Part shown: positions 19,901 through 44,510 of the stretch, in pieces
How the letters are laid out: each line of letters starts with the position of its first letter
Position numbering within the stretch: the first letter of the stretch is position 1
Assembly: GCF_000317515.1 (NCBI RefSeq)
Contig: NC_019738.1
Span: 1,681,623-1,745,622, forward strand
DNA from: Allocoleopsis franciscana PCC 7113
GTDB lineage: Bacteria; Cyanobacteriota; Cyanobacteriia; Cyanobacteriales; Coleofasciculaceae
Direction: 5' to 3'
Length of the DNA: 64,000 nt
Program-made: the position numbers and the translations under genes
The notes under the pieces: model-generated
Databases searched by the model: none
Seen by the model: the letters and a program-made list of their open reading frames with translations, nothing else
What the model was told of the DNA's origin: nothing

Positions 19901-20005
19901 GGAGTGCAGCAACGAATTCAGAGTAGTTTATCGCCAAAGGTGACTACCAATTTGAGTCATCCTTATTATTGGGCACCGTTTATTTTAATTGGCAATGGCT
20001 TGTAA
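16952..20005 (+). CDS. TPR-repeat plus CHAT-domain (caspase-like protease) protein, probably secreted or periplasmic
   Basis: The likely start is the ATG at 17033 (MHYRLKSLSLATATLLLSLFTPLL, signal-like). At least 10 tandem 40-aa TPR units follow (YTQALEYSQQALAI.REVG...). The C-terminal CHAT domain has a His (VHLATHAAF) and Cys (VVLSACETGLG) catalytic dyad. Confidence 0.85.
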   Translation: MHNLSPDEKYRCIESAICLPNSRENLPMHYRLKSLSLATATLLLSLFTPLLPLTLKFEPLVVQGQTLEQQEPGAEKWYLEAYQRLLTGEYLAALEKLQQDLVTFRKNSDRAREGAVLTCIGIVYSNIGQYTQALEYSQKALAILREVGKLPNGDRATARTWEGRTVYSIGLVYGSIGEYTQALEYSQQALAINREARDRLWEGRTLNSLGGTYYYLGQYPKALDCYQQALAIFKEVGNRSDEGRIFNNFGLVYRNLGEYSKALEFFQQALAIHKQIGDKAAEGTSIRNLGLVYRNLGQYPKALEFFEQALAIHKQIGNKGMEGTTLSNIGAVYWDLGQYPEALEFFQQALAIRTEIGDKAGEGETLNNIGAVYDKQEKYAKALDFYQQALAISRAIGDKPGEGGTFNNIGAVYDKLEQYPKALEFFQQALAIAKEINDKVGQGTILNNIGFLLDAQNQSELAIVFFKQSVNVTEGIRKDLRVLPKEQQQSFTETVAGTYRRLADLLLQQDRVLEAQRVLDLLKVQELEDYLRNVRGNNNTAQGLPNLLPEQQTWESYQAILNKAVEIGKELTQLRQLKKQNGTLTPTQEQRIAQLLKAQETIREEFNNFTRSPEVIALVTQKSPETLSQDLLLQMGNFNALQDNLKNLQQNAVLLYPLILDDRIELILTTPDSPPIRRTVQVPKKQLNQTIAAFRSALLDRTSDAKPPAQQLYNWLIKPLEAELKAADAQTIIYAPDAQLRYIPLAALYDGQQWLVQRYRINNITAASLTDLNTKPQRKMQVLAGAFATGRYSFKVGEQSFDFAGLPFAGTEVENLANTVPTTTKLIDKAFTPEVTVPKMDDYTVVHLATHAAFVVGTPDDSFILFGNGERITLRDIQKWSLKNVDLVVLSACETGLGGKLGNGEEILGLGYQMQRAGARAAIASLWTVDDGGTQALMDSFYAALESKQVGQDSQPTKAEALRQAQIALITGDYKALGQQRGLGVQQRIQSSLSPKVTTNLSHPYYWAPFILIGNGL

Positions 20006-22378: not shown

Positions 22379-25300
22379 GTGAATGTATTTGTAAAGCTTT
22401 TCAAAGAAGGCTTGACAATCTTGCCATTGTTCGGATTTTCAGTCTGTTTAACAGTGCTTCCGACTCTTCCATCTGTCCAGGCACAACCCATTACACCGGC
22501 TGTTGACAGTACCAATACTATCGTCACTCCCAACGGCAACCAAATTAACATTTCAGGTGGTACCTCTTCGGGAGACGGTAGTAATCTTTTTCATAGTTTT
22601 GAGCAATTTGGCCTGGATGCCGGTCAAGTTGCCAACTTCATGTCTAATCCCCAGATTCGCAATATCTTAGGTCGCGTTGTTGGGGGTAATCCCTCCTTGA
22701 TTAACGGACTCATTCAGGTGAGTGGAGGCAACTCCAACTTATTTTTAATGAATCCTGCCGGGATAGTTTTTGGTGCTTCGGCTAGCTTAAATGTTCCTGC
22801 TTCCTTTACCGCAACGACTGCCACAGGAATTGGGTTGGGTGGCAATCATTGGTTTAATGCTTTTGGGAATAATGACTATCCCAACTTAGTCGGCACCCCT
22901 AGTCAGTTTGCGTTTGACCTTTCTCAACCCGGAAGTGTCATCAATGCGGGTAATCTCGCCGTGTCGCCGGGACAAAATCTAATGTTACTTGGGGGCAGTG
23001 TACTCAATACCGGGACAGTGAGTGCTCCCGGAGGAACGATTACCCTTGCTGCCGTACCGGGTGAGAATTTAGTCCGAATTAGCCAACCCGGACACGTACT
23101 CAGTATCGAGATTGAATCCAAGACAGCAGGAGGACAGACGATAGCCTTTAACCCCGTTAATTTGCCCACACTACTCACGGGCACAATCGGCAGTGGGGGA
23201 GTGCCCTCGTCTGCGGTTCCCACAGAGGCAGGAACCATTATGGTTTCTGGGACTCTGGATGCTTCTAATTCAACTGGGGGGAAGATAGGCGGTAACGTCA
23301 ATGTTTTAGGGACAAATGTCAATCTCGTTGAAGCCAATATCAACGCCTCTGGAAGTGATGGCGGTGGCACCGTACTCATCGGTGGAGATTATCGCGGGTT
23401 AGGCACAGTACCCAATGCTGAGTTTACCGATGTAGACAGCAATACCACCCTTCAAGCGAATGCTCTCACACAGGGAGATGGTGGCAAAGTTGTTGTTTGG
23501 GGGAATAACACCACGACCTTCCAAGGTCAGATTACAGCACAGGGGGGTGCTTTCGGGGGTAATGGTGGGTTTGCGGAAGTATCCGGTGCTCAGACGTTGA
23601 AGTATCAGGGTGTAACAAATTTACTGGCACCCAATGGACAGACGGGAAACTTACTGTTAGACCCCGAAACCTTTATCATTGCCAATGTAGGCGGGGACAT
23701 TACCCCAGAGGGCGTAGCCGCTGCCCTGACAACTGCCAATGTCACCTTTGATGCTACCAATTTCCTCACTGTTAGTGATGCGATTAACTCCACGAGTGGG
23801 TTTAATTTAACCCTAGATGCACCCACGATTAACCTGAATGCACCCATTACCCTAGGGGGTCAACTCTTGGGTACAGCCAACAATACCACCGTGAATGTGG
23901 GGTTGGCTGGCAGGATTCAAAATGGCATAGATGTGGCAACCAGTGGAGCAAATGTCAATCTCGCCCCTGGAACCTTCACTGAGTCCGTCACGATTAACAA
24001 ATCCCTCACGTTAACGGGTGCAGGCGCTGGGAATACTACCGTAAGTGGCAACAATACCTTCCGAGTATTTAATATTTCTGCTGCTAATGTCACTTTGGAT
24101 GGTTTGACGATTACCAATGGACGCGCCGATAGTGGCGGTGGCATTCTCTACACGGGGACGGGCACGCTAAATATTACCAATAGCATTATCACAGGCAATC
24201 AAGCCATCGGTGCCAATGGTGCAAATGGCAGTAACGTTGGTGCGGGTGGTGGTGGCGGTGGCGGCGCGGGACTTGGTGGCGGCCTGTTCATCAATGGAAA
24301 TGGTACAGTCACGGTGACCAATTCGACTTTTGCTGGCAATCAGGCCATTGGTGGCAATGGTGGTCAGGGATTCCCAAATAATGGGGTATTTGATGGTACG
24401 GGTGGCAATGGTGGTGGCGCTAACCCAGGCATCGGCGGGACTCCCGGTAACCCTGGTGGTGCGGGGGGGTTTGCCAGTGGTGGTGGCGGCGGCGGTGGTT
24501 CTGACGAGGTGGGTGGGGCTGGCGGTGCGGGTGGTTTCGGCGGTGGTGCGGGGGGCGGCGGCGGTCGTACGGGTGGGTTTAGCGGTAACCCCAGTAATCC
24601 TCCCGGTTTCGGCGGGGGTACGGGTGGACAGGGTCAATTTAGTGCGGCAGGTGGCGGTGGTGGCGGTGCTGGATTCGGTGGCGCGATTTTTGTCAATTCT
24701 GGCTCTTTGTCGGTGAATAACAGCACCTTTGTGAACAATTCATCGGCGGGCGGAGTTGGTGGTACCGGGGGTTTTGGCGGTGATGGTGGTGCAGGGCAAG
24801 GGACAGGCGGTGCGATTTTTGTGAATACGGGTAATGCCACGCTGACCAACAATACCCTCAGCGGCAACACGGCGAGTCACAGTGGCGGCGGCATTTATAA
24901 CTTAAATGGCACCACCAGCCTTAATCATCTGACGATCGCAAATAATACCGCAACTCTGGGCAATGGTGGCGGCCTCGTTAATAATGGCGGTACTGTCAAT
25001 GTCCGCAACACGCTGATTGCCAATAATAATCATCCCACGTCCCCCGATGTGTTTGGCCTCTTCACCGACTTGGGGAACAACCTGATTGGCAATAGTGCAG
25101 GCAGCACCAGTTTCACCACCAGCACTCTCGTGGGGACAACCACGAACCCCATCAACCCCCTACTCGCACCTCTGCAAAATAATGGCGGTGCTACCCAGAC
25201 TCATGGGTTGCTTCCTGGCAGTCCCGCCCTTAATGCAGGGGCGACGGTTACAGGTGTCACCACCGACCAACGAGGTGTATCCCGCACAGGGATTGGTGAC

Positions 25301-27103
25301 CCGGTTCCTGATATTGGTGCCTATGAAGCGATTCGAGTGTTATTCGGCAATCCCACTTACAGTATTAATACTAATGCAACCCAAGCGGCGATCGCGGTTC
25401 AGGTAGACCGCACGCCTGCAATTGGCACTGGCGGAAATATCAACGTTAACTATAATACCGCTGATGGCACGGCAATCTCTGGCACCGACTACAGCACAAC
25501 CACGGGAACCCTCACGTTCACCAATTCGGTCACCCGCCAGACGTTTAATGTCCCTATTCTGAGTACGGCGAGGAATAATCGCACCGTTAATCTCAGCCTG
25601 ACGAATCCTAAAAATGCTGTTTTGGGGAGTCCCAATTCTGCCCTGCTGACTCTCCTCCAACCTCTTCCCCTCCCGTCTCCGTCACCCTCTCCCATACCGT
25701 CTCCTTCTCCCACACCGTCACCCTCTCCTACCCCGACAACCGTTAATCCTGTTGACTTGACGTTACCCCAGAAACCGCTAGAGCCAGCACCGATTCAAAA
25801 CAACAACTCTCAACCTTTAGAGAGGGCTGTGGAGAGTATTGACCAATCCTCCAGCACGGATTTTGAGCAATATCTCGGCGTGGGCGAAACACCAGGTATC
25901 AGCTTAGTGCAAGCTCGAAATCTCCTGCGTGGCATAGAAAGTTCGACAGGGGTCAAACCTGCGGTTATTTATGCTATTTTTGTCCCGGAAAGTGTGACTC
26001 CATCGCCTGCCTCGTCTCAAGGTTTAGAGGAAGATTCGGCAGAACTTTTACTGTTACGCTCCCTAAAGCCGAGTCCGCGCGATCGTTTAGAATTGATTTT
26101 AATTTCTGGTACCGGTAAACCCATCCGCAAATCCGTCAATATCACCCGTGCCGAAGTGATAGCTATGGCGGAAAAGTTTCGATTTACGGTGACCAATGCC
26201 CGCGATGCTTTAGGCTATCTCACCCCAGCCCGAAAAATGTATCAGTGGCTGATGGCTCCCTTAGAAGCTGACATTGAGCAGCGAGGGATTAAAAATTTGA
26301 CCTATATCACCGACAGTGGGTTACGCACCATCCCCTTAGCTGCTCTCCACGATGGTAAAGGGTTTATTGTCGAACGTTACAGTATCGGCTTGATGCCCAG
26401 TCTTTCTCTCACGGATACCCGTTATGGTGATATCCACTCATCCGAGGTACTCGCCATGGGAGCTAGTGAGTTTAAAGACAATAAGCCCTTACCTGCCGTA
26501 CCTGTAGAATTGAGTGTCATTACCCAAGCTTGGCAAGGTTTATCGTTTCTCAATCAAGGCTTTACCCTGGAAAACCTGAAGTCGCAACGGGCAAAAACTC
26601 CCTTTGGCATTATCCACCTAGCGACTCATGCCGAATTTCTGCCAGGGAAACCCGCCAACTCTTATATTCAGTTACAAGACCAGAAGTTGGCTCCGTTGCA
26701 ACTTAAGTCTGTGGGGTGGGCGAACCCGCCTGTGGAGTTATTGGTGCTGTCTGCCTGCCGCACGGCGGTAGGAGATGAGGAAGTGGAATTAGGCTTTGCG
26801 GGGTTAGCCATACAAGCGGGAGTTAAATCGGCCTTAGCTAGTCTGTGGTATGTCAATGATGAAGCGACATTGGGGTTAATGAGTGAGTTTTACCAACAAC
26901 TCAAAACGGCTCCCATTAAAGCCGAGGCTCTGCGAAAGGTACAGTTGGCGATGATATCAGGAAAGGTGCATATCCAAAATCAGCAGTTGCTAACTAGCGA
27001 GGGTGAGTTTCCCTTGCCTACGGAGTTAAGGGGTACTGGTGACAGAGGTTTTTCCCATCCCTATTATTGGAGTGGCTTTACGATGATCGGTAATCCCTGG
27101 TAA
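22379..27103 (+). CDS. giant secreted protein: TPS (filamentous haemagglutinin N-terminal) domain, Gly-rich Pmp-like beta-helix, Calx-beta, P/S/T linker, C-terminal CHAT protease
   Basis: Signal peptide ...LPSVQA-QP. TPS domain NLFHSFEQFGLDAGQVANFMSNP...LINGLIQVSGGNSNLFLMNPAGIVFG. GGAI/FxxN repeats (GGAIFVN twice). Calx-beta NYNTADGTAISGTDYSTTTGTLTF. Linker PLPSPSPSPIPSPSPTPSPSPTPTT. CHAT domain IHLATHAEF...LVLSACRTAVG. Confidence 0.85.
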   Translation: MNVFVKLFKEGLTILPLFGFSVCLTVLPTLPSVQAQPITPAVDSTNTIVTPNGNQINISGGTSSGDGSNLFHSFEQFGLDAGQVANFMSNPQIRNILGRVVGGNPSLINGLIQVSGGNSNLFLMNPAGIVFGASASLNVPASFTATTATGIGLGGNHWFNAFGNNDYPNLVGTPSQFAFDLSQPGSVINAGNLAVSPGQNLMLLGGSVLNTGTVSAPGGTITLAAVPGENLVRISQPGHVLSIEIESKTAGGQTIAFNPVNLPTLLTGTIGSGGVPSSAVPTEAGTIMVSGTLDASNSTGGKIGGNVNVLGTNVNLVEANINASGSDGGGTVLIGGDYRGLGTVPNAEFTDVDSNTTLQANALTQGDGGKVVVWGNNTTTFQGQITAQGGAFGGNGGFAEVSGAQTLKYQGVTNLLAPNGQTGNLLLDPETFIIANVGGDITPEGVAAALTTANVTFDATNFLTVSDAINSTSGFNLTLDAPTINLNAPITLGGQLLGTANNTTVNVGLAGRIQNGIDVATSGANVNLAPGTFTESVTINKSLTLTGAGAGNTTVSGNNTFRVFNISAANVTLDGLTITNGRADSGGGILYTGTGTLNITNSIITGNQAIGANGANGSNVGAGGGGGGGAGLGGGLFINGNGTVTVTNSTFAGNQAIGGNGGQGFPNNGVFDGTGGNGGGANPGIGGTPGNPGGAGGFASGGGGGGGSDEVGGAGGAGGFGGGAGGGGGRTGGFSGNPSNPPGFGGGTGGQGQFSAAGGGGGGAGFGGAIFVNSGSLSVNNSTFVNNSSAGGVGGTGGFGGDGGAGQGTGGAIFVNTGNATLTNNTLSGNTASHSGGGIYNLNGTTSLNHLTIANNTATLGNGGGLVNNGGTVNVRNTLIANNNHPTSPDVFGLFTDLGNNLIGNSAGSTSFTTSTLVGTTTNPINPLLAPLQNNGGATQTHGLLPGSPALNAGATVTGVTTDQRGVSRTGIGDPVPDIGAYEAIRVLFGNPTYSINTNATQAAIAVQVDRTPAIGTGGNINVNYNTADGTAISGTDYSTTTGTLTFTNSVTRQTFNVPILSTARNNRTVNLSLTNPKNAVLGSPNSALLTLLQPLPLPSPSPSPIPSPSPTPSPSPTPTTVNPVDLTLPQKPLEPAPIQNNNSQPLERAVESIDQSSSTDFEQYLGVGETPGISLVQARNLLRGIESSTGVKPAVIYAIFVPESVTPSPASSQGLEEDSAELLLLRSLKPSPRDRLELILISGTGKPIRKSVNITRAEVIAMAEKFRFTVTNARDALGYLTPARKMYQWLMAPLEADIEQRGIKNLTYITDSGLRTIPLAALHDGKGFIVERYSIGLMPSLSLTDTRYGDIHSSEVLAMGASEFKDNKPLPAVPVELSVITQAWQGLSFLNQGFTLENLKSQRAKTPFGIIHLATHAEFLPGKPANSYIQLQDQKLAPLQLKSVGWANPPVELLVLSACRTAVGDEEVELGFAGLAIQAGVKSALASLWYVNDEATLGLMSEFYQQLKTAPIKAEALRKVQLAMISGKVHIQNQQLLTSEGEFPLPTELRGTGDRGFSHPYYWSGFTMIGNPW

Positions 27104-27662: not shown

Positions 27663-28580
27663 ATGAAATCTTTATTACCGCAGTTGGGCAGTTTTGAACT
27701 GCTTTTCACTGCATTTCTGACCGCATTCTTCGTCGCTGGTGCGTCACCGCTTACCGCTCAAACTGAAATTAAAAATTCCGCTTCCGCATCCGGAGGGAAT
27801 TTACCAGACGTTGTTCAGTCCAATGAAACTGTACTGACCGCTGGTCAAGCCGTTCTTCAATTAGTCAAAACCGCAGACCGCGCTGCGGCTGAACCCGGTG
27901 ATACCGTCATTTATCGCCTCGCACTGACCAACACCGGAGAGGTTCCAGCCAATCAGATTACGATAACCGACACGCCACCACTAGGAGTGCGGTTTTTACC
28001 AGAGTCATTGCAAGGCGCACTCACCACAGGCAGTACCACCACACCCGTGAGTTTGCCTCCGGCAGTAACAGCAGACCGGCAAATCACTTTTACCTATCCC
28101 AGACTCGCGCCGGGGGAGACACTCACAGTGATTTATGCCTCGGTGGTCACACCAGACGCCGTCCGGGGGGATGGGAGAAATGTGGCGCGGGAGTCTCGCA
28201 GCAATCTAGCCGCCTTTCAACTCCGGATTCGACAGGGCATTTTATCCGACTGTGCCACTATCGTCGGTCGGGTATTTGTCGATAAAAACTTTGACGGGCA
28301 GCAGCAACCTGGAGAACCGGGAGTACCGAATGCGGTGCTTTTCATGGATGACGGCAATCGCATCACCACCGATGCCAATGGCTTATTCTCGTTAGTCAAC
28401 GTCATCGCCGGCCATCGCACAGCCACGTTGGATTTGAGCAGTCTGCCGGGATACAGCCTTGCGCCAAACATCAAATTTATTGAAGGCAATAGCCAGTCAC
28501 GCCTGGTACGGCTCGAACCGGGCGGAATGGCTCGGATGAATTTTGCCGTGACACCCGCTTATGGGGAGCAACAGCAATGA
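27663..28580 (+). CDS. secreted DUF11 (conserved repeat domain) plus Cna-B/SdrD-B-like domain protein
   Basis: Signal peptide LLFTAFLTAFFVAGASPLTAQTE. DUF11-like LVKTADRAAAEPGDTVIYRLALTNTG. B-type beta-sandwich GRVFVDKNFDGQQQPGEPGVPNAVLFMDDGNRITTDANGLFSL. The stop overlaps the next start (ATGA). Confidence 0.7.
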   Translation: MKSLLPQLGSFELLFTAFLTAFFVAGASPLTAQTEIKNSASASGGNLPDVVQSNETVLTAGQAVLQLVKTADRAAAEPGDTVIYRLALTNTGEVPANQITITDTPPLGVRFLPESLQGALTTGSTTTPVSLPPAVTADRQITFTYPRLAPGETLTVIYASVVTPDAVRGDGRNVARESRSNLAAFQLRIRQGILSDCATIVGRVFVDKNFDGQQQPGEPGVPNAVLFMDDGNRITTDANGLFSLVNVIAGHRTATLDLSSLPGYSLAPNIKFIEGNSQSRLVRLEPGGMARMNFAVTPAYGEQQQ

Positions 28581-31500
28581 AAAGCCCTCAAGAAAAGACA
28601 AACAGTAAGGATGAAATATTAAGGATGAAGCATGAAATCATCCCTCGACTCGTGAAAGAGATTTCGCCTTCCACTCAAGCGAATGCTAGCCATTTGGGCA
28701 ACAAATTGAACAGAAAATCCAGCCGCAGAAAGCGCAGGCTTCATCCTTCAGAGTTGACCCTTCAAACTTTTCCTAACAGGATTGCTTTTTACGTTTTACT
28801 ATCGAAAGGCTGGTTTCCCTCACTCAGCTTGGGTTTACTCACCACCCTATTGGGAACCATCGGGCTTATCCCGACAGCTAAGGCTGACGAATTGCCAGAA
28901 CCGCCTAATTTAGGTTTAGGGAAGGATGAAGTATTAACAACCGATGTGTCCTTGAATCATGGGCTGAAAACAGATATTGCATCAGTCTCGGTATATCGTT
29001 TAACTCATTTCCATCAATCGCTGAAGGATGAACCCTTAAATCTGACAAATGAAGCCCTTAATCCTTCATCTTTCGATAAATTTTCCGGTGACAATCAGAA
29101 AATTCACACATTAACTGACTTGCTCAAAGGTGAGGGGGAAGAGGTGCCCCAAACCGTAGAAATCGTCCCGAAAAACGCCTCCGTACAGTCATCTGTCCTC
29201 CGGTCTTTAAACATAGACTCCACAGCAATTGATGCTCCAAGACAAGCCGATAGCCTTCTACCGCGTTCAAAGGATAGTGTTTCCCGCAGCGAAATCCTGC
29301 AAAGACAGGAGTTAGAAGTCCGTGAACAATCGCAACCCAATACTGACACTTCGGAAGCCTTCGCACCCCAAACACCAACCGAGGGACAACTGGAAAATCT
29401 GGGAGAGTCTGCTCGAAAACAGCCTATCCTGGCTCTAACCAATGACCCCAACCGAGTGAGAATCCTATCGCCTTCCCTGGCGCTAAAGCAAAACGACGCC
29501 CCAGCCACAGAAGCCGCCGCACTCGCTCCTGGTACAGTTCGCATTCTCACGCCCCAAAGTGGCGTTACCGACAAAACCTCAACGAACCTCGTCATTCAAT
29601 ACAACGCCAATGACTCGGTTCAGGTCAGTGTGAACCAAAAACCCCTCGACCCTAAGACAGCCACTCAGCAGAACCGGGATGAGGCGCAAAACCTGATTAA
29701 CCAAGCTTGGTACAACATCCCCTTAAAAGAGGGAGACAATACCCTCACCGTCCAAGCTGGAAACGGAACCCCCGTTAGCATTCAGGTTGTGGTGCAAAAG
29801 ACCGCCCTCAAACTAGAAATTGCTCCCGTGGGCGACCCCCGTGTGGCAGCCGATGGTCGTTCCACCCTTACCGTTTCCGGACGCATTACCGATGAAAACG
29901 GTCAACTTTTAAGCGAAGATGCCGTAGTTACCTTAACGGCGGCAGCAGGACAATTTGTCGGTGCCGACCAAGACAAAGACCAACCCGGTTTTCAAGTAAT
30001 GGCACGGGGAGGACAATTCACCGCCCAACTCCAATCCAGCCTAGAGGCGCAAAAGGTGCGGATTCGTGCTGCCCTCGAACCGAAAGAGGAAAAGCAGACA
30101 GGGAGACCGGGCGAGATAGGGAATGCTCCCGCACATTACTCCGAGTCATCCAGTCTCCCCCTCTCCGCCGCTTCCCCTCCGGCAGTGGCACAAACCCCCC
30201 TGGAAGCTTACACCCAGGTGGAATTTGTGACCAATTTACGCCCCTCCTTAGTTTCAGGCGTGATTAACCTGCGAATTGGGCCATCGGGAACTAACTTTTG
30301 GGGCAGGCGGCGAGACTTCCTCAACCCAGAAACCATCGACGACGGCACGGAATTTGACTTACAAGGAGCCGTTTTTGCCACCGGACGGATTGGCGAGTGG
30401 CTGTTCACAGGAGCTTATAACAGCAGCCGCAACCTTAACGAAACTTGTGATGGCATCACCCGTTTGTTCCGAGGGCCACAGTTTTGCGAACAACAATATC
30501 CCGTAACTGGGGATAGTTCTACCGTCGATTACCTCACCCCCTCGATCGATAGCGTTTATCTCCGCTTTGAGCGCAATGCCGGACTGGGGAAAGAACCCGA
30601 CTATGTGATGTGGGGAGACTACAACAGCAACGAGTTCGCCAGAGAATCCCAACTTTTTACCGCCACCACCCGCCAGTTGCATGGCTTCAAAGGCAATTAC
30701 AACTTTGGTAACTTGCAACTCACCGCCATGTTCTCGCGCAACCTCCAAGGGTTCCAACGAGATACCATTGCCCCCAATGGCACCAGTGGTTATTACTTCG
30801 TTTCTCGACGACGCCTGGTTCCGGGAAGTGAGAATATCTTTATCGAAACCGAAGAAGCCAATCGTCCCGGTACCGTGATTTCCCGCAAACCCTTAGGACG
30901 AGGGTCAGACTATGAGATTGATTATGACCGGGGCACGATTTTATTCCGCCGTCCGATTCTCGCCACCGAATTTGCCTTTTTTGATGCGCCGTTGAGTGAG
31001 GCCGGTGCTGGCTCAACCCTGCTCGTGCGGAAGATTGTCGTCACTTACCAATATGAGGGGGGTGTTGAGAGTGACGACACCAATCTCTATGCAGGGCGTG
31101 TACAATACAACTTCTCCCAAGCGTTCCAGCAAGAAAGCTGGCTGGCTGGAACGTACCTACGGCAAGAGCAGGGAATCCAAGACTTTGAACTTTATGGGGC
31201 AGACTTCCGGGTTGCCCTAGGAACCAACGGACAAATCATTGGGGAAGTGGCTCATTCGGAGCATGACTCCCTGTTTCGAGGCAATGTCTCCGGTTCTGCC
31301 TATCGCTTAGAGGCGAATGCGACCATTGTCCCCGGACTGCTGGGACGAGCCTATTACCGATCGGTGGAGGAAAACTTTAGCAATGATGCCACCCTCAGCT
31401 TTACTCCGGGACAAACTCGCTACGGTGCTGCGATCGCTTATTCTATCGGTTCCAGCACCACCTTGCGCGCCGGATACGACTACGAAGAAAACTTTGGCGT

Positions 31501-33016
31501 CTCCCCCCTCATCCGCACCGACTTCTTCGATTTGTTCAACCCAGGCGTCGCCGTCCCTCCGGGTACTGGGGTTAACAACTCCCTGAGAACCATCAGCGCG
31601 GGAGTGCAGCAAAAAATTGGCAATGCAGCATTAAGTGTTGATTTTGTCAACCGTGAGCGCGAAGACCGAGTCGGCAATGTCTTCACCGGTAACGCCTCCC
31701 AACTCGTTTCCCGCCTAGGACTCCCCATCAGCGAAAGCCTGACATTTTTGGCGCAAAATGAACTAAGCCTCGGAGATAATGACCCCCTCTACCCCAATCG
31801 CACCACCTTAGGCATGGATTGGAGAGCTTACAAAGGGGTTACCCTGCGCCTCGCCCACCAATTCTTTGATGGTGGCATTTTGGGCAATGACTCCATCACT
31901 AGCCTGGATACAATTTTGTCCCACAACATCTGGGATAACACCACCATCACCGGTCGCTATTCCGTGATTAGTGGCTTCAACGGGGTAACCGGACAGGGGG
32001 CGGTAGGACTCAATCACCGTTGGACTGTTTCCCCAGGATTACTGGTGAATCTGGGCTATGAGCATACCTTTAGCAACACCGGGATTGCCACAGCGGCTGG
32101 GGTGCGCTTTGCTCAACCCTATACTGTCGGTCAAACCGCTGCCTCCCTTGCCTTATTAGGGGGCGATGTGTTCAATATCGGCGTGGAATATACCGATAAC
32201 CCCGACTTTAAAGCCTCTGCCCGCGTCGAACACCGCACGGGTTCCGGCAACAACAACACCGTGTTTTCCATTGCCGGGGCAGGGAAACTTTCTCCCTCCT
32301 TAACCCTCCTTGCCCGTTACGAGCAAGCCAACTTTGCCAACCAGCTCATTGAAGGGTTGAAAGATACGGCAAACCTCCGGGTAGGTTTAGCCTATCGCGA
32401 CCCCAATAGCGATCGCTGGAACGCCCTGATGCGCTATGAGTACCGCAAAAACCCCTCTACCATTCCCGAAACCCTACTCTTTGGCAGTGGTACCGGTTCC
32501 ACAGAACACCTATTTGCCGGAGAGGCGATTTTTGCCCCCAGTTGGCGATGGGAATTTTATGGCAAAGGCGCAGTCCGTTACAGCAACACCGATTTAGCCA
32601 ATAACTTCTCCAATGCTTCTACCATCTTCCTGACCCAACTCCGCGCTGCCTACCGCCTGAATTACCGGATGGATTTGGCGGTAGAAGGACGCTGGATTGG
32701 TCAAGATTCGCCCGGTTACAGCGAAACCGGCATAGCTGTAGAAACAGGCTATTATGTCACCCCCGATTTACGCCTCGCCTTGGGCTATAGTTTCGGCGGT
32801 GTGGATGACCGAGACTTTACCGGCTATCGCTCCAAAGGCGGCGTTTACTTTAATTTGACCTTCAAAGTCAACGAACTCTTCGGCGGCTTTGGACGGCAAA
32901 AAGTGGTGCCACCCCAACAGCAGGAATCGCTGACAAAACCCGTTGCCAACCAGCCAACATCGGATACCCCAGGGACGCAATCGAGCCGCCCTTCTAATAC
33001 CACGAGTGAGGAGTGA
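28577..33016 (+). CDS. very large predicted outer-membrane protein: extended signal peptide, Big_1-like Ig domain, C-terminal beta-barrel-like region of about 900 aa
   Basis: A 60-aa basic N-extension precedes the hydrophobic core (NRKSSRRKRRLHPSELTL...LLTTLLGTIGLIPTAKA). Ig-like segment TLTVQAGNGTPVSIQVVVQKT...STLTVSGRITDENGQ. The C-terminal half is full of alternating-hydrophobic, aromatic-ended strands (LRAGYDYEENFG, LRVGLAYRD, YYVTPDLRLALGYSFGG, VYFNLTF). Confidence 0.6.
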   Translation: MKSPQEKTNSKDEILRMKHEIIPRLVKEISPSTQANASHLGNKLNRKSSRRKRRLHPSELTLQTFPNRIAFYVLLSKGWFPSLSLGLLTTLLGTIGLIPTAKADELPEPPNLGLGKDEVLTTDVSLNHGLKTDIASVSVYRLTHFHQSLKDEPLNLTNEALNPSSFDKFSGDNQKIHTLTDLLKGEGEEVPQTVEIVPKNASVQSSVLRSLNIDSTAIDAPRQADSLLPRSKDSVSRSEILQRQELEVREQSQPNTDTSEAFAPQTPTEGQLENLGESARKQPILALTNDPNRVRILSPSLALKQNDAPATEAAALAPGTVRILTPQSGVTDKTSTNLVIQYNANDSVQVSVNQKPLDPKTATQQNRDEAQNLINQAWYNIPLKEGDNTLTVQAGNGTPVSIQVVVQKTALKLEIAPVGDPRVAADGRSTLTVSGRITDENGQLLSEDAVVTLTAAAGQFVGADQDKDQPGFQVMARGGQFTAQLQSSLEAQKVRIRAALEPKEEKQTGRPGEIGNAPAHYSESSSLPLSAASPPAVAQTPLEAYTQVEFVTNLRPSLVSGVINLRIGPSGTNFWGRRRDFLNPETIDDGTEFDLQGAVFATGRIGEWLFTGAYNSSRNLNETCDGITRLFRGPQFCEQQYPVTGDSSTVDYLTPSIDSVYLRFERNAGLGKEPDYVMWGDYNSNEFARESQLFTATTRQLHGFKGNYNFGNLQLTAMFSRNLQGFQRDTIAPNGTSGYYFVSRRRLVPGSENIFIETEEANRPGTVISRKPLGRGSDYEIDYDRGTILFRRPILATEFAFFDAPLSEAGAGSTLLVRKIVVTYQYEGGVESDDTNLYAGRVQYNFSQAFQQESWLAGTYLRQEQGIQDFELYGADFRVALGTNGQIIGEVAHSEHDSLFRGNVSGSAYRLEANATIVPGLLGRAYYRSVEENFSNDATLSFTPGQTRYGAAIAYSIGSSTTLRAGYDYEENFGVSPLIRTDFFDLFNPGVAVPPGTGVNNSLRTISAGVQQKIGNAALSVDFVNREREDRVGNVFTGNASQLVSRLGLPISESLTFLAQNELSLGDNDPLYPNRTTLGMDWRAYKGVTLRLAHQFFDGGILGNDSITSLDTILSHNIWDNTTITGRYSVISGFNGVTGQGAVGLNHRWTVSPGLLVNLGYEHTFSNTGIATAAGVRFAQPYTVGQTAASLALLGGDVFNIGVEYTDNPDFKASARVEHRTGSGNNNTVFSIAGAGKLSPSLTLLARYEQANFANQLIEGLKDTANLRVGLAYRDPNSDRWNALMRYEYRKNPSTIPETLLFGSGTGSTEHLFAGEAIFAPSWRWEFYGKGAVRYSNTDLANNFSNASTIFLTQLRAAYRLNYRMDLAVEGRWIGQDSPGYSETGIAVETGYYVTPDLRLALGYSFGGVDDRDFTGYRSKGGVYFNLTFKVNELFGGFGRQKVVPPQQQESLTKPVANQPTSDTPGTQSSRPSNTTSEE

Positions 33017-33026
33017 ATAGTTAGGA

Positions 33027-35387
33027 GTGCAATACAACTTATTGGAATTTTCGGTCATGCGGGGAGTCAACCGTCCAGCGTCAAACTTGAACAAGGCAGA
33101 AGAAGGAAGGCAGGAGGCAGAAGTTAGCCAAGTTTGCCCTTCTCTGGTGGAAAGAAAGCGCAACAACAAGCCTTTTGCCTGGTTATTTTTGAGTTTTGAC
33201 CAAAAAAGGCCGAAGGCAGAAGACAGGAGGCATGAGAAGGAATGCCCTTTGCCCTTTGCCTTCTACCTTCCTCAATTGCTCCTGCTGAGTGTTTTAGTCG
33301 CGCCACTGAGGGCGACAGCCCAGCCGACCAATTCTGTATCCGTGGTGGTGAATAGTAATCAGGATGGCCTGATTCAACCCGACAATCGCTTAACCTTGCG
33401 GGAGGCGATCGCCATTGTCAACGGTCAGCTCAGTCTAGAACAATTGAGTCAGGCGGAAAAAGCCCAAGTTCGACCCCTCGATGCCAATACAGCCTCTCGC
33501 ATTGAATTTAATTTACCTCCAGACCAAACCACCATTTACCTCCAAAGCCTATTACCATCCCTAGCCAGTCCGGGATTAGTGGTGGATGGGACAACCCAAC
33601 CGGGTTATGATCCAACCCGTTCAGCAACCGCAGAAATTGAAATTCCCATTCCTGTGGTGGCTCTAGCACCCGCACCCAACCAAGAAGTCCTGCGGGGACT
33701 CACGATTGTTGCCGATAACATCACCGTGCGGGGTTTAAGCCTCTATGGCTTTGGCAAGTGGGGTGGGGCGACACTCAACACCCCACCGGGAGATATTGTG
33801 ATCGAGCGGAGTCCTGCATTTCCTGATGTCACACTCCAGCCACCCACCTCTAGTTTGGATTTGAGGAGTCCTAAACCTAACTCAAAACCCAGCGAATCCC
33901 AGCCACCGAAGAATGTCGCGATTGAACTGAATTGGTTGGGTATCCCACCCAATGGGCAAATGCCCAGTCAGTTATCAGCCTTTGGCTTGTATGTGTTTAA
34001 CAGTCTAGGTACCACCATTCGACGCAACCGCATTGCCAATCATCAGGGCAGTGGCATCATTACCGGCGCTCAAGCCGAGAATATGTTGGTAACAGAGAAC
34101 ATCATCGTGGGTAATGGGCTAGCTGGAATGCCCGATGCCATTCGCCTCGAAGGGCAGATTGACCAGTCACAAATTACAGGCAATTTAATTTGTGGCAATG
34201 ATGGCAGTGGGGTGTATTTGTTTAAGCCCAAGGGTGCTGTACAAATTCGCAATAACCAAATCACCTCGAACGGCAGACGCTTGCGTCAGGCGGCTGTTTA
34301 CCTGATGGGCAATAATCATCAGGTGATGGATAACCAAATTAGTTATCAGTCGGGGCCGGGTGTGGTGGTGACGGCTTATCCCCAAAACGACGTTCAGCAG
34401 AATCGCTCCTCTTCGCGCAACATCATTGAGAACAATCGCTTTGCCCAACTCGAAGGGTTGAGTATTGACCTCAACACCCAACAGAATGTTAACCCGATTC
34501 ATTTTCAACGGGGGGATGGCCCGAATCCTCTCCGGAATTCGCCCAACCGACGGGAAGAAACGGGGAATGCGGCGATTAATGCGCCGCAGTTTCTCAGTTC
34601 AGAGTTTTTTGTGTTGGGAACAGAGGTGAAGCTGTTTGGCAAGGCTGATCCGGGTTCAACGGTTGAAGTGTATCGAGTTCGGGAAAATACAACAATCCCC
34701 TATGGCCCGTTAAGTGAACCCCTCACGAGTGTGGCGACCGATGAGCAAGGGGATTTTAGCGTCACGGTGGATAATTTACAGCCTGGGGACAAAGTCAGCG
34801 CGATCGCCACTCATCCCCAGTACGGCACCTCTGAACCGGCGCTCAATGCCAGGGTTCTTGCGGCGGATGGGACTGGCACAGCCCAACCTGATGTACCCTC
34901 TGGTGTGATTCCCCCATGTACGACGGCACAAGTACCACCCAATCCCCCAGAACCGACTCCTCCACCAGAACAACTAAGGCTGTCTGTTGCGCGGAATATC
35001 CATTTCGCTCTCGACCAATCCACCATCAGTCCAGAAAGCGCCGTCATCCTCGACCAAATTGTTGCGGTGATGCGCTCTTATCCCTTTCTCACCGTTGACA
35101 TTCAGGGTCACACTGACCCCCGTGCCAGTGCGGCCTACAACCAAGCCTTAGGAATGCGTCGTGCGATCGCCGCACGAAATTACCTGTTGCGTCAAGGAAT
35201 TGCTCCAGAACGCTTGACAATTCGGTCATTTGGTGAATTAGAACGCCGAACCACGGGCAGTGACGTTGTGGATTATGCACGCGATCGCCGCGTAGAGTTC
35301 ATCTTCCAAGATACGAGAGGCTTGGAAATCATCTTTGAAAATCAAGAAACCGACTTGCAAGTAGAACCTAGGGGAGGATCGAGGTAG
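33027..35387 (+). CDS. secreted right-handed beta-helix protein with C-terminal OmpA-like peptidoglycan-binding domain
   Basis: Signal-like PFAFYLPQLLLLSVLVAPLRATAQP. Parallel beta-helix repeats (GNLICGNDGSGVYLF, IRNNQITSNG). C-terminal OmpA_C-like DIQGHTDPRASAAYNQALGMRRAIAARNYLLRQGIAPERL. The 5' 220 nt contain STRR-like repeats, so the real start is probably the TTG near 33249. Confidence 0.65.
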   Translation: MQYNLLEFSVMRGVNRPASNLNKAEEGRQEAEVSQVCPSLVERKRNNKPFAWLFLSFDQKRPKAEDRRHEKECPLPFAFYLPQLLLLSVLVAPLRATAQPTNSVSVVVNSNQDGLIQPDNRLTLREAIAIVNGQLSLEQLSQAEKAQVRPLDANTASRIEFNLPPDQTTIYLQSLLPSLASPGLVVDGTTQPGYDPTRSATAEIEIPIPVVALAPAPNQEVLRGLTIVADNITVRGLSLYGFGKWGGATLNTPPGDIVIERSPAFPDVTLQPPTSSLDLRSPKPNSKPSESQPPKNVAIELNWLGIPPNGQMPSQLSAFGLYVFNSLGTTIRRNRIANHQGSGIITGAQAENMLVTENIIVGNGLAGMPDAIRLEGQIDQSQITGNLICGNDGSGVYLFKPKGAVQIRNNQITSNGRRLRQAAVYLMGNNHQVMDNQISYQSGPGVVVTAYPQNDVQQNRSSSRNIIENNRFAQLEGLSIDLNTQQNVNPIHFQRGDGPNPLRNSPNRREETGNAAINAPQFLSSEFFVLGTEVKLFGKADPGSTVEVYRVRENTTIPYGPLSEPLTSVATDEQGDFSVTVDNLQPGDKVSAIATHPQYGTSEPALNARVLAADGTGTAQPDVPSGVIPPCTTAQVPPNPPEPTPPPEQLRLSVARNIHFALDQSTISPESAVILDQIVAVMRSYPFLTVDIQGHTDPRASAAYNQALGMRRAIAARNYLLRQGIAPERLTIRSFGELERRTTGSDVVDYARDRRVEFIFQDTRGLEIIFENQETDLQVEPRGGSR

Positions 35388-38371
35388 TGCAGCGCAATTC
35401 CAGCCGATTCGGCGTCCAGACGTGGAAAAAAAAAGTCCGAATATTGATCAGCTTGCTTAAGTTTTCTGCCAATAAAATCCTGCCCCGTCGGAGTCAGGGA
35501 GCGATTTCTGGCTATCCAAAAGGCTCACTGATGTTCCGGAAGTTTGGGTATGCGCTCATCAGCCTCTTGACTCTTGTGGCGGTGGTGGTGGGTTACTACT
35601 CTCCAGCCTTGACACAGAGTGTTCCTGCTCCGGACAGTTTTATTTGCGATCGTACCTTGTATATCAGTCAAGGGCTACTCAACCAAAATTCCACACTCTC
35701 CAGCGTCATCACAACGCCTAACTTTGCTCTTAACACGGTTGGTACCGCAACGGTTCAGTACAACGCCATCGGCTTGAATGTTCGCGATGGGTTTATTTAT
35801 GGCATTGCTCCTCAATCCGACCCTGGATCGAATTTACCTCCAACCATTTATCGAATTAATAATACAGGAGCAGCTACTGCCATCGGTGCTCCACAACCCA
35901 ATGGAGCTATTGTTTTTGATCCAATTCCAAATGGTAATCCTAACCAGAGTTTTGCTTTCGCTGGCGATATCAATAGAAACGGGATCTACTTTGTATATGT
36001 CACTAACATCCCTGCACCCGGAAATAATCTCTTCGCGATCGATCTAGCAACTAATCCCAATACCCCTACTATGGTCAGTAGTCTGAGAGTCCAAAGAGCT
36101 GACGGTACAAGTCCTGACCTTTCGGACATTTCTTTCAATCCTGTGGATGATCAGCTCTATGCTTTTGACAGCTTCAGAGTTAATGGGCAGCCATCATCTC
36201 AAGGTCAGATGGCTAGAATCGACACGACTACTGGCGCAGTCACCTACTTTGGCGCGACACAACCCAATGTGGGTATTGTTGGTGCATCTTTCTTTGATGC
36301 GTTTGGTAACTTTTACACTTATGAAACTACGGGTAATATATCTGTCGCACGTAATCTTTCAAGTTCTAATCCTGTTGTATTTTCACCACTCGGAAATGCT
36401 GGAGTCGTTCAAAGATTTGACGGTGCATCCTGTGCCTTTGCGCCAGTTGCGGAAAAGATTGTCGAGCCTCAATCAGTCGCAGCCAATGGCATCATCACTT
36501 ACAGATATCGTCTCGCTAACCAACTAGGACAGCCATTAAGTACTGCAAACTTGTCATTTACCGACCAGTTGCCTGCTGGATTGACCTACGTCGATCAAAC
36601 GCTCAACAATACTAGCGTGGGTGGCACTCCTAATGCTTATGGCGGAACTCCACTGCTGCAAATTGCAGGGATTACCATCCCACCTAGAGGTTTTGTCGAA
36701 ATCAGCGTGAATGTCCGGGTTAGTTTGACTGCATCTCCTGGCACAGTCTTGAATCAAGCCACAATCAATAACGTTCCATCCGTGCCTGGAGTGACCCTTC
36801 CACCTACGATTCCGTCGGATTTTCCTCCCACAGGTATTTACCCTGATCCGACACCCTTAGTCATTACTCCAGCTCCCCCTACCCCAAGGATTGGTTTAGC
36901 CAAGAGAGTGGCATCTAGTGTGAACCTTGGCAACGGTGTCTTTCGAGTGACGTATGCACTCGTCGTCAGCAACCTAGGGAATGTTGACCTCAACAATGTA
37001 CAAGTTACAGAAGATCTTACGACTACTTTTGCTAACGCAACATCCTTTACTGTTGCCCCAAATAGCGTTAGTAGTCCAAGCGGCGACCTCACTCCTAATC
37101 CCAACTACAATGGTCGCGCTGACAACCCTAATTTGCTAACCGGTACAACCAATACATTAACCGTTGGTCAAAGCAAGACCATTCAATTTATTGTCGATGT
37201 TACCCCAGGAGCAAACTTAGGGCCTTACAACAACCAAGCTGTGGCAAGCGGTACCGATCCCAATGGTCAAACGGTTACAGATCTATCCCAAAATGGCACG
37301 AACTCAGACCCCGATAACGATGGCAACCCCGCCAATAACAATGACCCCACCCCAGTCAACTTCAACCAAACACCGGCTTTAGGGGTTGCCAAGGAAGTCG
37401 TTTCCATTGTCCCTGCTGACGCAGGAAACTCCACCGTAACTTACAGAATCCGTGCCCGAAACTACGGACAAGAGAATCTCACTAATCTCCAGCTTACGGA
37501 AAACCTTACCACGACCTTCGACAACATACCTTTTACGGTTCCTGCCAATAGTGTCACAAGTCCTAATGGCAACCTCACGCCTAATTCTAATTACAATGGT
37601 CGTACTGACATCAATTTGCTGGTGGGTACAGATACCTTAGCTGTTGGTGAAACAAAAGTCATTGAATTCATCGTCATTATCACCCCTGGTAACCAAACTC
37701 GTACCTATGAAAACCTGGTACAAGGAACAGCTCAAAGTCCTTCCGGCTCAGTGAGTGACCAATCGCAAGCTGGGATTAACCCAGACCCCGATAACGATGG
37801 CAACCCAACCAATAACAATGACCCGACTCCATTGGATGTAGGGCCAAACTTGCGCTTGGTGAAACGGATTACAAATGTAATCCGAAGTGGTGCACCAATT
37901 AGTGGAATTGACTTCCAAAGCTTTGTTGATAACCTCAATGACCGCAACGACAATGTTTCTGGATGGTCTCAACTTCCGGGTGGAGTTCTCACAGGAGTTT
38001 TCCGCATCGGTTCTGATGCTCTATTACAAACTGGAGATGAAGTCGAATACACCGTTTACTTCCTCTCGGATGGAACTCAACTTGTCACGGATGCCAAAGT
38101 CTGTGACCCCATTCCAGAGAAGACCACATTTATTCCTGACAGTTTTCAAGCCGGTCAAGGGATTTTGTTGAATCAACAGACAACCAATACATCTCTAACT
38201 AATGCTTTAGATACAGACCAAGGAACATTTTTCTCTCGTCTTACTCCTGTTACCTCTCCCTGTCCCAATACCAACAACTCTAACGGGTCAATCTTAGTAA
38301 ATCTGGGAGATTTACCTGCCACCCCCCCTAACAACGTTGGTTTCATCCGTTTCCGCGTGAGAATCGATTAA
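35387..38371 (+). CDS. cell-surface DUF11-repeat protein with unassigned Cys-containing N- and C-terminal domains (paralog 1)
   Basis: The likely start is the ATG at 35531 (MFRKFGYALISLLTLVAVVVG signal/anchor). N-domain of about 330 aa with two conserved Cys. Three DUF11-like repeats (NLGNVDLNNVQVTEDL). Conserved C-terminal domain of about 170 aa (LRLVKRITN...VCDPIP...SPCPNTNN...VGFIRFRVRID). Confidence 0.65.
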   Translation: MQRNSSRFGVQTWKKKVRILISLLKFSANKILPRRSQGAISGYPKGSLMFRKFGYALISLLTLVAVVVGYYSPALTQSVPAPDSFICDRTLYISQGLLNQNSTLSSVITTPNFALNTVGTATVQYNAIGLNVRDGFIYGIAPQSDPGSNLPPTIYRINNTGAATAIGAPQPNGAIVFDPIPNGNPNQSFAFAGDINRNGIYFVYVTNIPAPGNNLFAIDLATNPNTPTMVSSLRVQRADGTSPDLSDISFNPVDDQLYAFDSFRVNGQPSSQGQMARIDTTTGAVTYFGATQPNVGIVGASFFDAFGNFYTYETTGNISVARNLSSSNPVVFSPLGNAGVVQRFDGASCAFAPVAEKIVEPQSVAANGIITYRYRLANQLGQPLSTANLSFTDQLPAGLTYVDQTLNNTSVGGTPNAYGGTPLLQIAGITIPPRGFVEISVNVRVSLTASPGTVLNQATINNVPSVPGVTLPPTIPSDFPPTGIYPDPTPLVITPAPPTPRIGLAKRVASSVNLGNGVFRVTYALVVSNLGNVDLNNVQVTEDLTTTFANATSFTVAPNSVSSPSGDLTPNPNYNGRADNPNLLTGTTNTLTVGQSKTIQFIVDVTPGANLGPYNNQAVASGTDPNGQTVTDLSQNGTNSDPDNDGNPANNNDPTPVNFNQTPALGVAKEVVSIVPADAGNSTVTYRIRARNYGQENLTNLQLTENLTTTFDNIPFTVPANSVTSPNGNLTPNSNYNGRTDINLLVGTDTLAVGETKVIEFIVIITPGNQTRTYENLVQGTAQSPSGSVSDQSQAGINPDPDNDGNPTNNNDPTPLDVGPNLRLVKRITNVIRSGAPISGIDFQSFVDNLNDRNDNVSGWSQLPGGVLTGVFRIGSDALLQTGDEVEYTVYFLSDGTQLVTDAKVCDPIPEKTTFIPDSFQAGQGILLNQQTTNTSLTNALDTDQGTFFSRLTPVTSPCPNTNNSNGSILVNLGDLPATPPNNVGFIRFRVRID

Positions 38372-44447: not shown

Positions 44448-44510
44448 AATCAGCTAAAGGCAAAGGCCAGAAACCATCCCGACTTCTGCCTTTTTATTTT
44501 TTACCCAGAT

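Follow-up and report, generated by a model that had tools for sequence, protein, structure and literature searches.

A predicted giant outer membrane β-barrel with conserved CLIPPER and OmpA-like partners in Allocoleopsis franciscana

Introduction

What kind of protein is encoded at positions 28577 to 33016 (+ strand) of the locus described here, and what could it do in the cell envelope? The locus lies in a 64,000-nucleotide stretch of contig NC_019738.1 from the cyanobacterium Allocoleopsis franciscana PCC 7113 (positions 1,681,623 to 1,745,622), and this whole stretch is called the window below. The gene was located from the list of open reading frames (ORFs) and their translations; it starts with ATG and encodes a 1,479-residue precursor that matches an A. 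franciscana hypothetical protein at 100% identity. A first-pass annotation, made from the letters of the sequence, had proposed that the product carries an extended signal peptide, an immunoglobulin (Ig)-like domain, and a very large β-barrel. The analysis reported here indicates that the protein is very probably a giant outer membrane barrel, that is, a known kind of protein from an undescribed family with an extreme size and a conserved set of partners.

Outer membrane barrels that exceed 26 strands in a single chain are very rare, with SlpA at 30 strands and SprA at 36. The SprA barrel is the largest single-chain barrel known, and a large automated survey discarded predictions of 27 to 40 strands as labeling errors or as evolutionarily unlikely (10.64898/2026.03.07.710327). 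Size context for giant barrels is also available from PMC9388160. The partners of the protein belong to a second field of study. CLIPPER (DUF11) domains are isopeptide-stabilized stalk units of surface fibrillar adhesins (PMC12617251), and chains of DUF11 domains form surface filaments (10.1101/2025.08.19.671072). How diderm bacteria that lack a type IX secretion system (T9SS), cyanobacteria included, display such folded fibrillar adhesins is an open question, and the strict linkage and the gene fusions described below provide a testable candidate machine.

Results and Discussion

The C-terminal region is predicted to be a barrel of at least 32 strands.

Residues 400 to 1479 were modeled with AlphaFold2 from an alignment of 85 sequences, which spanned cyanobacterial members and relatives of ∼22 to 27% identity. 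The model had a mean predicted local distance difference test (pLDDT) score of 77.4 and a predicted template modeling (pTM) score of 0.75, with 791 of 1,080 residues at a pLDDT of at least 70. It consisted of an invasin/Big_1-like Ig domain followed by ∼890 residues of antiparallel strands, all of it β-strand from residue 542 on. AlphaFold2 and DSSP thus bore out the strand-dominated C-terminal region of the first-pass annotation, and the strings that had been quoted for it were found at residues 966 to 974 (GYDYEENFG), 1267 to 1275 (LRVGLAYRD), 1391 to 1408 (GYYVTPDLRLALGYSFGG), and 1423 to 1429 (VYFNLTF).

Foldseek searches with the model returned SprA (36 strands) as the first match, and the other top matches were Deinococcus SlpA (30 strands), MtrB, TonB-dependent transporters, LptD, and ushers. 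None was close (template modeling [TM] score of ∼0.2 for all matches and ∼0.18 for SprA), and every significant structural neighbor of the strand-rich part was an outer membrane barrel. DSSP placed 32 consecutive long antiparallel strands at residues 816 to 1430 (positions 31022 to 32866, +), in which turns of 2 to 5 residues alternate with longer, variable, indel-bearing loops. Such alternation is typical of periplasmic turns and extracellular loops, which places residue ∼815 and the C terminus on the periplasmic side. The last strand, GVYFNLTFK, resembles a β-signal, and its G1422 and K1430 are nearly invariant. The predicted protein therefore combines a signal peptide, a closed antiparallel amphipathic barrel with short periplasmic turns and long outer loops, and a C-terminal β-signal-like strand, as expected of an outer membrane β-barrel.

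Profile searches gave little further guidance. No model in Pfam or NCBIfam covers the barrel region, and PHROGs gave no match. A PDB sequence search with the single sequence found nothing, and the family profile matched only Ig domains, those of GH2 enzymes. The hidden Markov model (HMM) searches proposed along with the first-pass annotation for Usher, LptD, autotransporter, and TamB/AsmA families, and those for TpsB/POTRA and intimin barrel families, were likewise without a match; for classical type V secretion, the autotransporter β-domain (PF03797), the TpsB barrel, and POTRA were all negative. DUF2490 (PF10677, ∼186 positions) scored 23.5 bits on the full protein, below its threshold of 29.8, and 33.4 bits when the C-terminal 664 residues were scanned alone, where the match covered residues 939 to 1093, a fraction of the barrel.

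That the protein is instead a soluble β-solenoid or sandwich, or the barrel an artifact of AlphaFold2, is very improbable. In favor of such a reading, the model is a predicted one, built from 85 sequences, and ∼149 of its residues have a pLDDT of <50; against this stand its pTM and the share of well-scored residues, the amphipathic strands with aromatic ends, the β-signal-like last strand, the stretch that passes the DUF2490 threshold when the C-terminal 664 residues are scanned alone, the signal peptide, and partners that bind peptidoglycan. Since the significant structural neighbors are outer membrane barrels throughout, the membrane barrel of the first-pass annotation was retained in preference to a soluble solenoid, a sandwich, or a known soluble family.

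The number of strands depends on how the region before residue 816 is read. DSSP assigned eight amphipathic strands, with long conserved loops, to a conserved N-terminal sector of the barrel at residues 542 to 720 (30200 to 30736, +), and the amphipathicity of these strands is no lower than that of the other 32. When residues 536 to 820 were modeled in isolation (pLDDT, 78), seven of the eight strands were kept and strand 542–551 was lost. This strand is confident in the model of residues 400 to 1479; its partner therefore lies outside residues 536 to 820. The simplest candidate for the partner is the last strand of the protein, and this pairing would close a barrel of ∼40 strands. An arrangement of an 8-stranded OmpA-like barrel next to a separate 32-stranded barrel was considered and rejected, as the isolated sector matched no closed small barrel. 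The model thus shows a barrel of at least 32 strands, and the ∼890 C-terminal residues would probably form one transmembrane barrel of 38 to 40. The first-pass annotation had rightly set the size far above the 12 to 16 strands of autotransporter or TpsB barrels; its comparison with LptD or an usher (24 to 26 strands) fell short, and the predicted size is in the range of SprA.

Proteins of similar layout appear in an existing list. Deinococcus radiodurans AAF11946, UID71982, and UID69687 are predicted to form barrels of 38 strands that are preceded by invasin-D3 Ig domains at the N terminus (PMC9388160, SI Table S3). They resemble the A. franciscana protein in architecture, the level at which they were compared: one or more invasin-D3 Ig domains precede a giant barrel with an equal number of strands, within uncertainty. 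They are likewise uncharacterized, and PMC9388160 lists them without context, partners, or function.

The family is large and is frequently named as TonB-dependent receptors.

A trimmed barrel profile recovered 5,610 clusters (at 50% identity) at an E value of ≤1e-3 and 2,883 at ≤1e-30. Relatives are encoded in at least 578 stretches of species-representative genomes, which argues that the ORF is not a chance reading frame. Most members have 1,500 to 2,900 residues with the barrel at the C terminus, and one (P0227, 920 residues) consists of the barrel only. The family is found in Cyanobacteria, Acidobacteriota, and Alpha- and Gammaproteobacteria. Among its named members are proteins of filamentous cyanobacteria and some unicellular ones, of Pyrinomonadaceae (Acidobacteriota), and of Erythrobacteraceae. 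Plasmids or chromids carry further members in Acinetobacter, Sinorhizobium, the Roseobacter group, Ralstonia, and Vibrio, and some genomes hold two or three copies of the barrel gene, part of them plasmid borne. A literature search found no description of this barrel family or gene set; the sole related items were the Deinococcus entry in the supplementary table of PMC9388160 and general papers on CLIPPER/DUF11.

PGAP and UniRef call many relatives "TonB-dependent receptor" (P0052, P0056, P0061, and P0119 to P0191, and the plasmid matches H4, H6, H7, H10, H11, H13, and H16), and one relative is named "OprO/OprP porin." These names, together with the TonB-dependent transporters among the generic structural matches and a conserved N-terminal sector that could in principle be a plug, are what speaks for a receptor or nutrient uptake channel. 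Domain tests effectively refute this possibility, which we regard as very improbable: neither Plug (PF07715) nor TonB_dep_Rec (PF00593) matched at an E value of ≤0.01, NCBIfam gave no match, and a Pfam scan of the conserved sector (residues 536 to 820) returned nothing even at an E value of ≤1. In addition, TonB-dependent transporters have 22 strands, not the ≥32 predicted here, the cluster contains no TonB/ExbBD or substrate-binding genes, and it is CLIPPER and OmpA proteins that recur as partners. The naming therefore looks like a systematic misannotation, with the domain scans covering the window protein. With thousands of clusters, and with a confident model that has 32 strands or more, giant barrels may be common, overlooked, and mislabeled as TonB-dependent receptors.

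The barrel gene is linked or fused to CLIPPER and peptidoglycan-binding modules.

The first-pass annotation had suggested translational coupling of the barrel gene to an upstream DUF11/Cna-B gene. The upstream ORF (27663 to 28580, +) encodes a 305-residue secreted protein in which Pfam and NCBIfam scans detected DUF11 (E value, 1.9e-10) and an SdrD_B/CnaB-type domain, the latter below threshold (E value, 1.2e-4; 22.7 bits against a cutoff of 29.7). Its TGA overlaps the ATG of the barrel gene (junction sequence, GCAATGAAAAGC). Coupling reaches beyond this ATGA overlap, as the pair is kept in ∼80 loci and is fused in other phyla. Downstream, a 786-residue ORF with an uncertain true start (33027 to 35387, +) encodes a protein with a β-helix, Big_6, and an OmpA-like peptidoglycan-binding domain (Pfam, NCBIfam). 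Its stop is overlapped by the start of a 994-residue ORF (35387 to 38371, +) for a large secreted protein with DUF6923 and CLIPPER repeats (Pfam, NCBIfam), a candidate for cargo or a surface fiber on the basis of its domains. A paralogous large CLIPPER-repeat protein of 819 residues (38738 to 41197, +; three repeats of NCBIfam TIGR01451) is 40 to 59% identical to the 994-residue protein. All five cluster proteins of the window have Sec-type leaders. No inner membrane, ATPase, or chaperone gene was found in the cluster by ORF and domain scans of the window.

The same order, from the small DUF11/SdrD_B gene to the barrel gene, the β-helix/OmpA gene (in most loci), and one or more large CLIPPER proteins, was found in ∼80 cyanobacterial loci. 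Nearly all of them have a small CLIPPER gene directly upstream of the barrel gene, and in most the position of the 994-residue protein is taken by a large CLIPPER protein. In Picosynechococcus, the barrel gene lies among CLIPPER or unannotated genes, with no separate OmpA gene. Beyond cyanobacteria, plasmid p4 of Acinetobacter haemolyticus repeats the order of the window, with small DUF11/NEW3 proteins, a 2,008-residue DUF11-barrel protein, an OmpA protein, and a 978-residue DUF11 protein. On a Sinorhizobium accessory plasmid, the gene for a DUF11 protein of >3,300 residues overlaps the start of the barrel gene, and Qipengyuania has two unannotated small genes, a weak-CLIPPER gene, the barrel gene, and a 730-residue CLIPPER protein; neither locus has a separate OmpA gene. 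An acidobacterial locus contains unannotated genes, a barrel fusion, and a 679-residue CLIPPER protein, with no OmpA domain detected, and a metagenomic locus of an unnamed taxon has a small weak-CLIPPER gene upstream and OmpA fused inside the barrel protein.

Fusions tie the same modules together in single polypeptides. In the acidobacterial protein P0099, DUF11 and SdrD_B are N-terminal to the barrel, and residues 65 to 298 of the 305-residue protein, which are its whole mature part, align with P0099 residues 497 to 737 (33% identity; E value, 4e-28). P0109 and P0196 have an additional OmpA domain before the barrel, with the CLIPPER/SdrD_B module N-terminal to OmpA, and in P0242 and P0253 the OmpA domain is C-terminal to the barrel. 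Fusion of OmpA on either side confirms that the two termini of the barrel share the periplasmic side. P0242, with the order CarboxypepD_reg-DUF11-SdrD_B-barrel-FlgD_ig-OmpA, is collinear with the three window genes at 27663 to 28580, 28577 to 33016, and 33027 to 35387, a textbook Rosetta stone case. Members of the family can thus be recognized by the invariant residues of the N-terminal sector (see below) together with adjacent or fused CLIPPER/OmpA partners. At the level of gene order and fusion, these data show an obligate genetic partnership of the barrel with a CLIPPER/SdrD_B module and a peptidoglycan-binding module, and the barrel is highly likely to form a functional unit with the products of the two flanking genes.

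The A. haemolyticus gene set (plasmid p4, CP085288.1, 190024 to 203531) lies as a whole on a mobilizable plasmid beside a transposase, so the cluster may move horizontally; plasmid copies also occur in Picosynechococcus sp. NIES-970 and Sinorhizobium meliloti. Both large CLIPPER paralogues of the window have an open-frame extension of ∼45 to 65 codons before the signal peptide (35387 to 35530 and 38738 to 38990), and the two extensions are weakly alike (QTWxxK). These may be long n-regions that precede the signal peptide, as in the barrel protein, or the true starts may lie downstream.

Conservation peaks in loops and a small domain that face the periplasm or the lumen.

A small β domain at residues ∼726 to 790 (GSENIFIETEE to RPGTVISRKPLGRGSDYEIDYDRGTILF; 30752 to 30946, +) was assigned to the periplasmic or lumen side. 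Conservation of the family peaks in this domain and in the N-terminal sector, not in the barrel wall. Eleven residues (G603, T611, Y641, D646, S656, D681, R699, G735, D778, Y779, and G786) are invariant in all 85 sequences. The only cysteines of the 1,479-residue protein, C624 (30446 to 30448) and C637 (30485 to 30487), are 13 residues apart in the longest conserved loop; both are kept in 69 of the 85 homologues, and they probably form a periplasmic disulfide. By strand parity, the long conserved loops and this domain point toward the periplasm or lumen, which suggests a functional site at these positions, a gate or else a surface for docking.

The region N-terminal to the barrel has 187 to 540 residues in most cyanobacterial members, with a single outlier of 838. 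It contains an Ig-like domain of the Big_1/invasin-D3 type at residues 412 to 501 (29810 to 30079, +), which we infer to be periplasmic; the Pfam match of Invasin_D3 on the whole protein was below threshold. The domain precedes the barrel, as had been noted at first pass, and so reverses the order found in intimin. A putative first β-sandwich domain is tentatively placed at residues ∼318 to 410 (29528 to 29806, +) on the basis of faint Pfam matches and of the family profile, positions 208 to 375 of which match C-terminal Ig-like domains of GH2 enzymes in the PDB sequence search. Before it, residues 104 to 317 (28886 to 29527, +) form a linker that is rich in Ser, Thr, Pro, Glu, and Leu and that differs strongly in length and sequence between relatives. 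At the other end, a C-terminal tail of residues 1431 to 1479 (32867 to 33013, +) is disordered in the model. The motif NELFxGFGxQxVxPPQQQES (residues 1432 to 1451; 32870 to 32929) is part of the consensus of cyanobacterial members, and non-cyanobacterial members, which end 0 to 33 residues past the barrel, are without it.

A long leader precedes the linker.

Hydropathy and motif positions outlined a leader of residues 1 to 103 (28577 to 28885, +) with a polar/basic n-region of ∼67 residues, a hydrophobic core at ∼68 to 100, and AKA at 101 to 103, the cleavage site having been placed by eye and not by a prediction tool. The first-pass annotation had described a 60-residue extended signal peptide; the long polar/basic segment before the core and the AKA are present, and the lengths were revised to ∼67 residues for the segment and 103 for the whole leader. 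The quoted string KSSRRKRRLHPSELTL (residues 47 to 62) lies inside the n-region. As for autotransporters and TpsA proteins, the likeness to their extended signal peptides proved superficial. A leader of the ESPR type was rejected, as ESPR (PF13018) had no Pfam match in residues 1 to 108 even at an E value of ≤1 and the extension is specific to one clade and variable in length: it ranges from ∼10 to 67 residues across relatives, is down to ∼10 to 40 outside the close ones, and is missing from Trichocoleus and Leptolyngbya members. The N-terminal motif MKxPQEK recurs in relatives of 55 to 91% identity, and the annotated start codon is therefore probably correct.

The module may export or anchor CLIPPER proteins.

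To account for these results, we favor a model in which the product of the barrel gene would be a Sec-exported integral outer membrane protein with a leader, a linker, one or two periplasmic Ig-like domains, and then the barrel. It would be the central piece of a three-part envelope module, flanked by the CLIPPER+SdrD_B protein and by the Ig/β-helix-OmpA protein that would bind peptidoglycan; three consecutive, translationally linked genes would encode the module in cyanobacteria and one polypeptide, in the same order, would comprise it in other phyla. The module would act as a wide outer membrane conduit and as an anchoring platform tied to the cell wall, bringing the downstream large CLIPPER-repeat proteins (in other taxa, small CLIPPER subunits) to the surface and retaining them there. 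This cargo, Ig-like and often isopeptide-locked "beads-on-a-string" fiber proteins, would reach the periplasm via Sec, and folded Ig domains would fit through the pore, as they do in SprA, the translocon of the T9SS. As the cluster has no inner membrane or ATPase component, the driving force for export would come from outside or from folding, as it does in chaperone-usher or type V systems. We estimate a probability of roughly 0.45 to 0.5 that the module exports or anchors CLIPPER proteins. The bolder form of the proposal, an undescribed and widespread secretion or fiber assembly pathway of the outer membrane in which a peptidoglycan-docked barrel of 38 to 40 strands passes folded, isopeptide-locked Ig-repeat subunits without an inner membrane motor, is tentative and on balance somewhat unlikely.

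Several points weigh against this model. Localization, complex formation, and cargo are inferred for every member of the family. The strand count above 32 is provisional, as are the reading of residues 542 to 815 as wall or plug and that of the lumen as open or closed. The structural likeness to SprA and to ushers is generic (TM score, ∼0.2), unfolded cargo would need no giant pore, and no gene for an energy source or chaperone is present in the cluster. Finally, in P0109 and P0196 the CLIPPER/SdrD_B module is N-terminal to a periplasmic OmpA domain, so the simplest topology for it is periplasmic and not at the surface, which fits a tether at least as well as export.

A structural tether between outer membrane and cell wall, or a giant porin, is indeed the main rival, although an unlikely one in our view. 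Ig, CLIPPER/SdrD_B, and OmpA domains would then form a rigid periplasmic strut to the peptidoglycan, a functional analogue of SlpA/OmpM or OmpA, and the neighboring large CLIPPER proteins would be unrelated or merely coregulated surface proteins. OmpA-like domains, which flank the barrel in fusions or come from an adjacent gene, and the economical periplasmic topology just described, agree with such a role. So does the 30-stranded SlpA barrel among the top Foldseek matches. In Terrabacteria, Cyanobacteria among them, connectors of the SlpA/OmpM type are described as the principal tethers (PMC9388160). SlpA/OmpM connectors also share with this system a large barrel combined with a module that reaches peptidoglycan, and they are prominent in Deinococcus and Cyanobacteria. 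They are, however, trimers with an SLH domain and a coiled coil, neither of which Pfam found here; peptidoglycan would be bound here through an OmpA-like domain that is often a separate protein, and the CLIPPER partners are obligatory. A tether also has no need of a lumen of 38 to 40 strands. It leaves unexplained why a separate CLIPPER gene, small or large, lies beside the barrel gene in most loci examined, in several phyla, and why the most conserved residues are in barrel loops facing the lumen or periplasm. Two to three copies in several genomes, some of them plasmid borne, would be unusual for a core envelope tether.

Self-export in the style of type V autotransporters is the closest formal version of the autotransporter/TpsA idea of the first-pass annotation, and we consider it improbable. 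The region N-terminal to the barrel would thread through its own barrel and be shown on the surface, the passenger being the linker and Ig domains here and 1,000 to 1,500 residues of CLIPPER/SdrD_B/CarboxypepD_reg repeats in fused relatives. Passenger-like Ig repeats at the N terminus, a barrel at the C terminus that ends 0 to 33 residues from the end of non-cyanobacterial members, and the long leader would all suit this route. It is opposed by the missing autotransporter, TpsB/POTRA, intimin barrel, and ESPR matches, by a barrel ∼3 times larger than any of type V, and by OmpA domains within the N-terminal region that should stay periplasmic. Barrel-only members such as P0227 exist, and the cyanobacterial counterparts of the "passenger" modules are Sec-exported proteins in their own right. 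Intimin and invasin (type Ve) share with the A. franciscana protein only the Ig domain of the Big_1/invasin-D3 type; in addition to the reversed domain order, the intimin barrel has 12 strands, and no IAT_beta or LysM match was found.

Known export systems offer partial parallels to the favored model, in which the module conducts or anchors CLIPPER proteins. SprA/Sov of the T9SS (36 strands, Bacteroidota) has a peptidoglycan-bound partner with an OmpA domain (PorE in SprA) and exports surface proteins with folded Ig repeats, very long filament proteins among them, which resembles the proposed export of CLIPPER proteins. However, no sequence homology was detected, SprA models (SprA_N/TIGR04189) gave no match, and the TM score is ∼0.18; PorV, PorK/N, PorL/M, and T9SS-type C-terminal domain signals were all absent from the window, the cluster has no inner membrane motor genes, and the phyla differ. 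The ushers FimD and PapC are also barrels encoded within an operon of small and large Ig-fold fiber subunits, with periplasmic domains N-terminal to the barrel, a β domain inserted early in the barrel region, and no required ATP source, and ushers are among the structural matches. They differ in having 24 strands (at least 32 here) and a periplasmic chaperone gene, and their subunits are pilin domains with an incomplete Ig fold, in contrast to the CLIPPER (CnaA-like) subunits of this cluster; Usher (PF00577), PapC_N, and PapC_C gave no match.

LptD-LptE and MtrB-MtrA, both represented among the Foldseek matches, are 26-stranded barrels with a lumen filled by a separately encoded partner. By analogy, the CLIPPER+SdrD_B module may sit inside the giant lumen. 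No LptD or OstA match and no match to the MtrB-type decaheme-associated porin was obtained, the barrels of these systems are much smaller, and their substrates (lipopolysaccharide and electrons) are different.

If the export model is true, Cyanobacteria, Acidobacteriota, Proteobacteria, and probably Deinococcus would possess a secretion system of a new type, with a barrel larger than that of SprA. Such a system would bear on cyanobacterial adhesion, mats, and biofilms, on how very large barrels are assembled by the β-barrel assembly machinery (BAM), and on the engineering of protein secretion.

Genes around the cluster.

A scan of the locus for promoters and terminators gave a signal no better than that of shuffled sequence and hence no operon boundaries. 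Upstream of the cluster, a 1,574-residue protein (22379 to 27103, +) has a two-partner secretion (TPS) domain (E value, 6e-43), Calx-beta, and a C-terminal CHAT protease-like domain (E value, 2.5e-66), and these domains mark it as an exoprotein of the TpsA type that carries a CHAT effector domain; among the window ORFs scanned, no TpsB/ShlB partner for it was detected. A link between this gene and the barrel operon was rejected, as the synteny holds in the closest relatives only. Farther upstream lies the gene for a 1,017-residue TPR protein (16952 to 20005, +). Downstream, the region at 42147 to 45809 (+) encodes a PP2C-type Ser/Thr phosphatase (766 residues) and an FHA-domain Ser/Thr kinase (432 residues).

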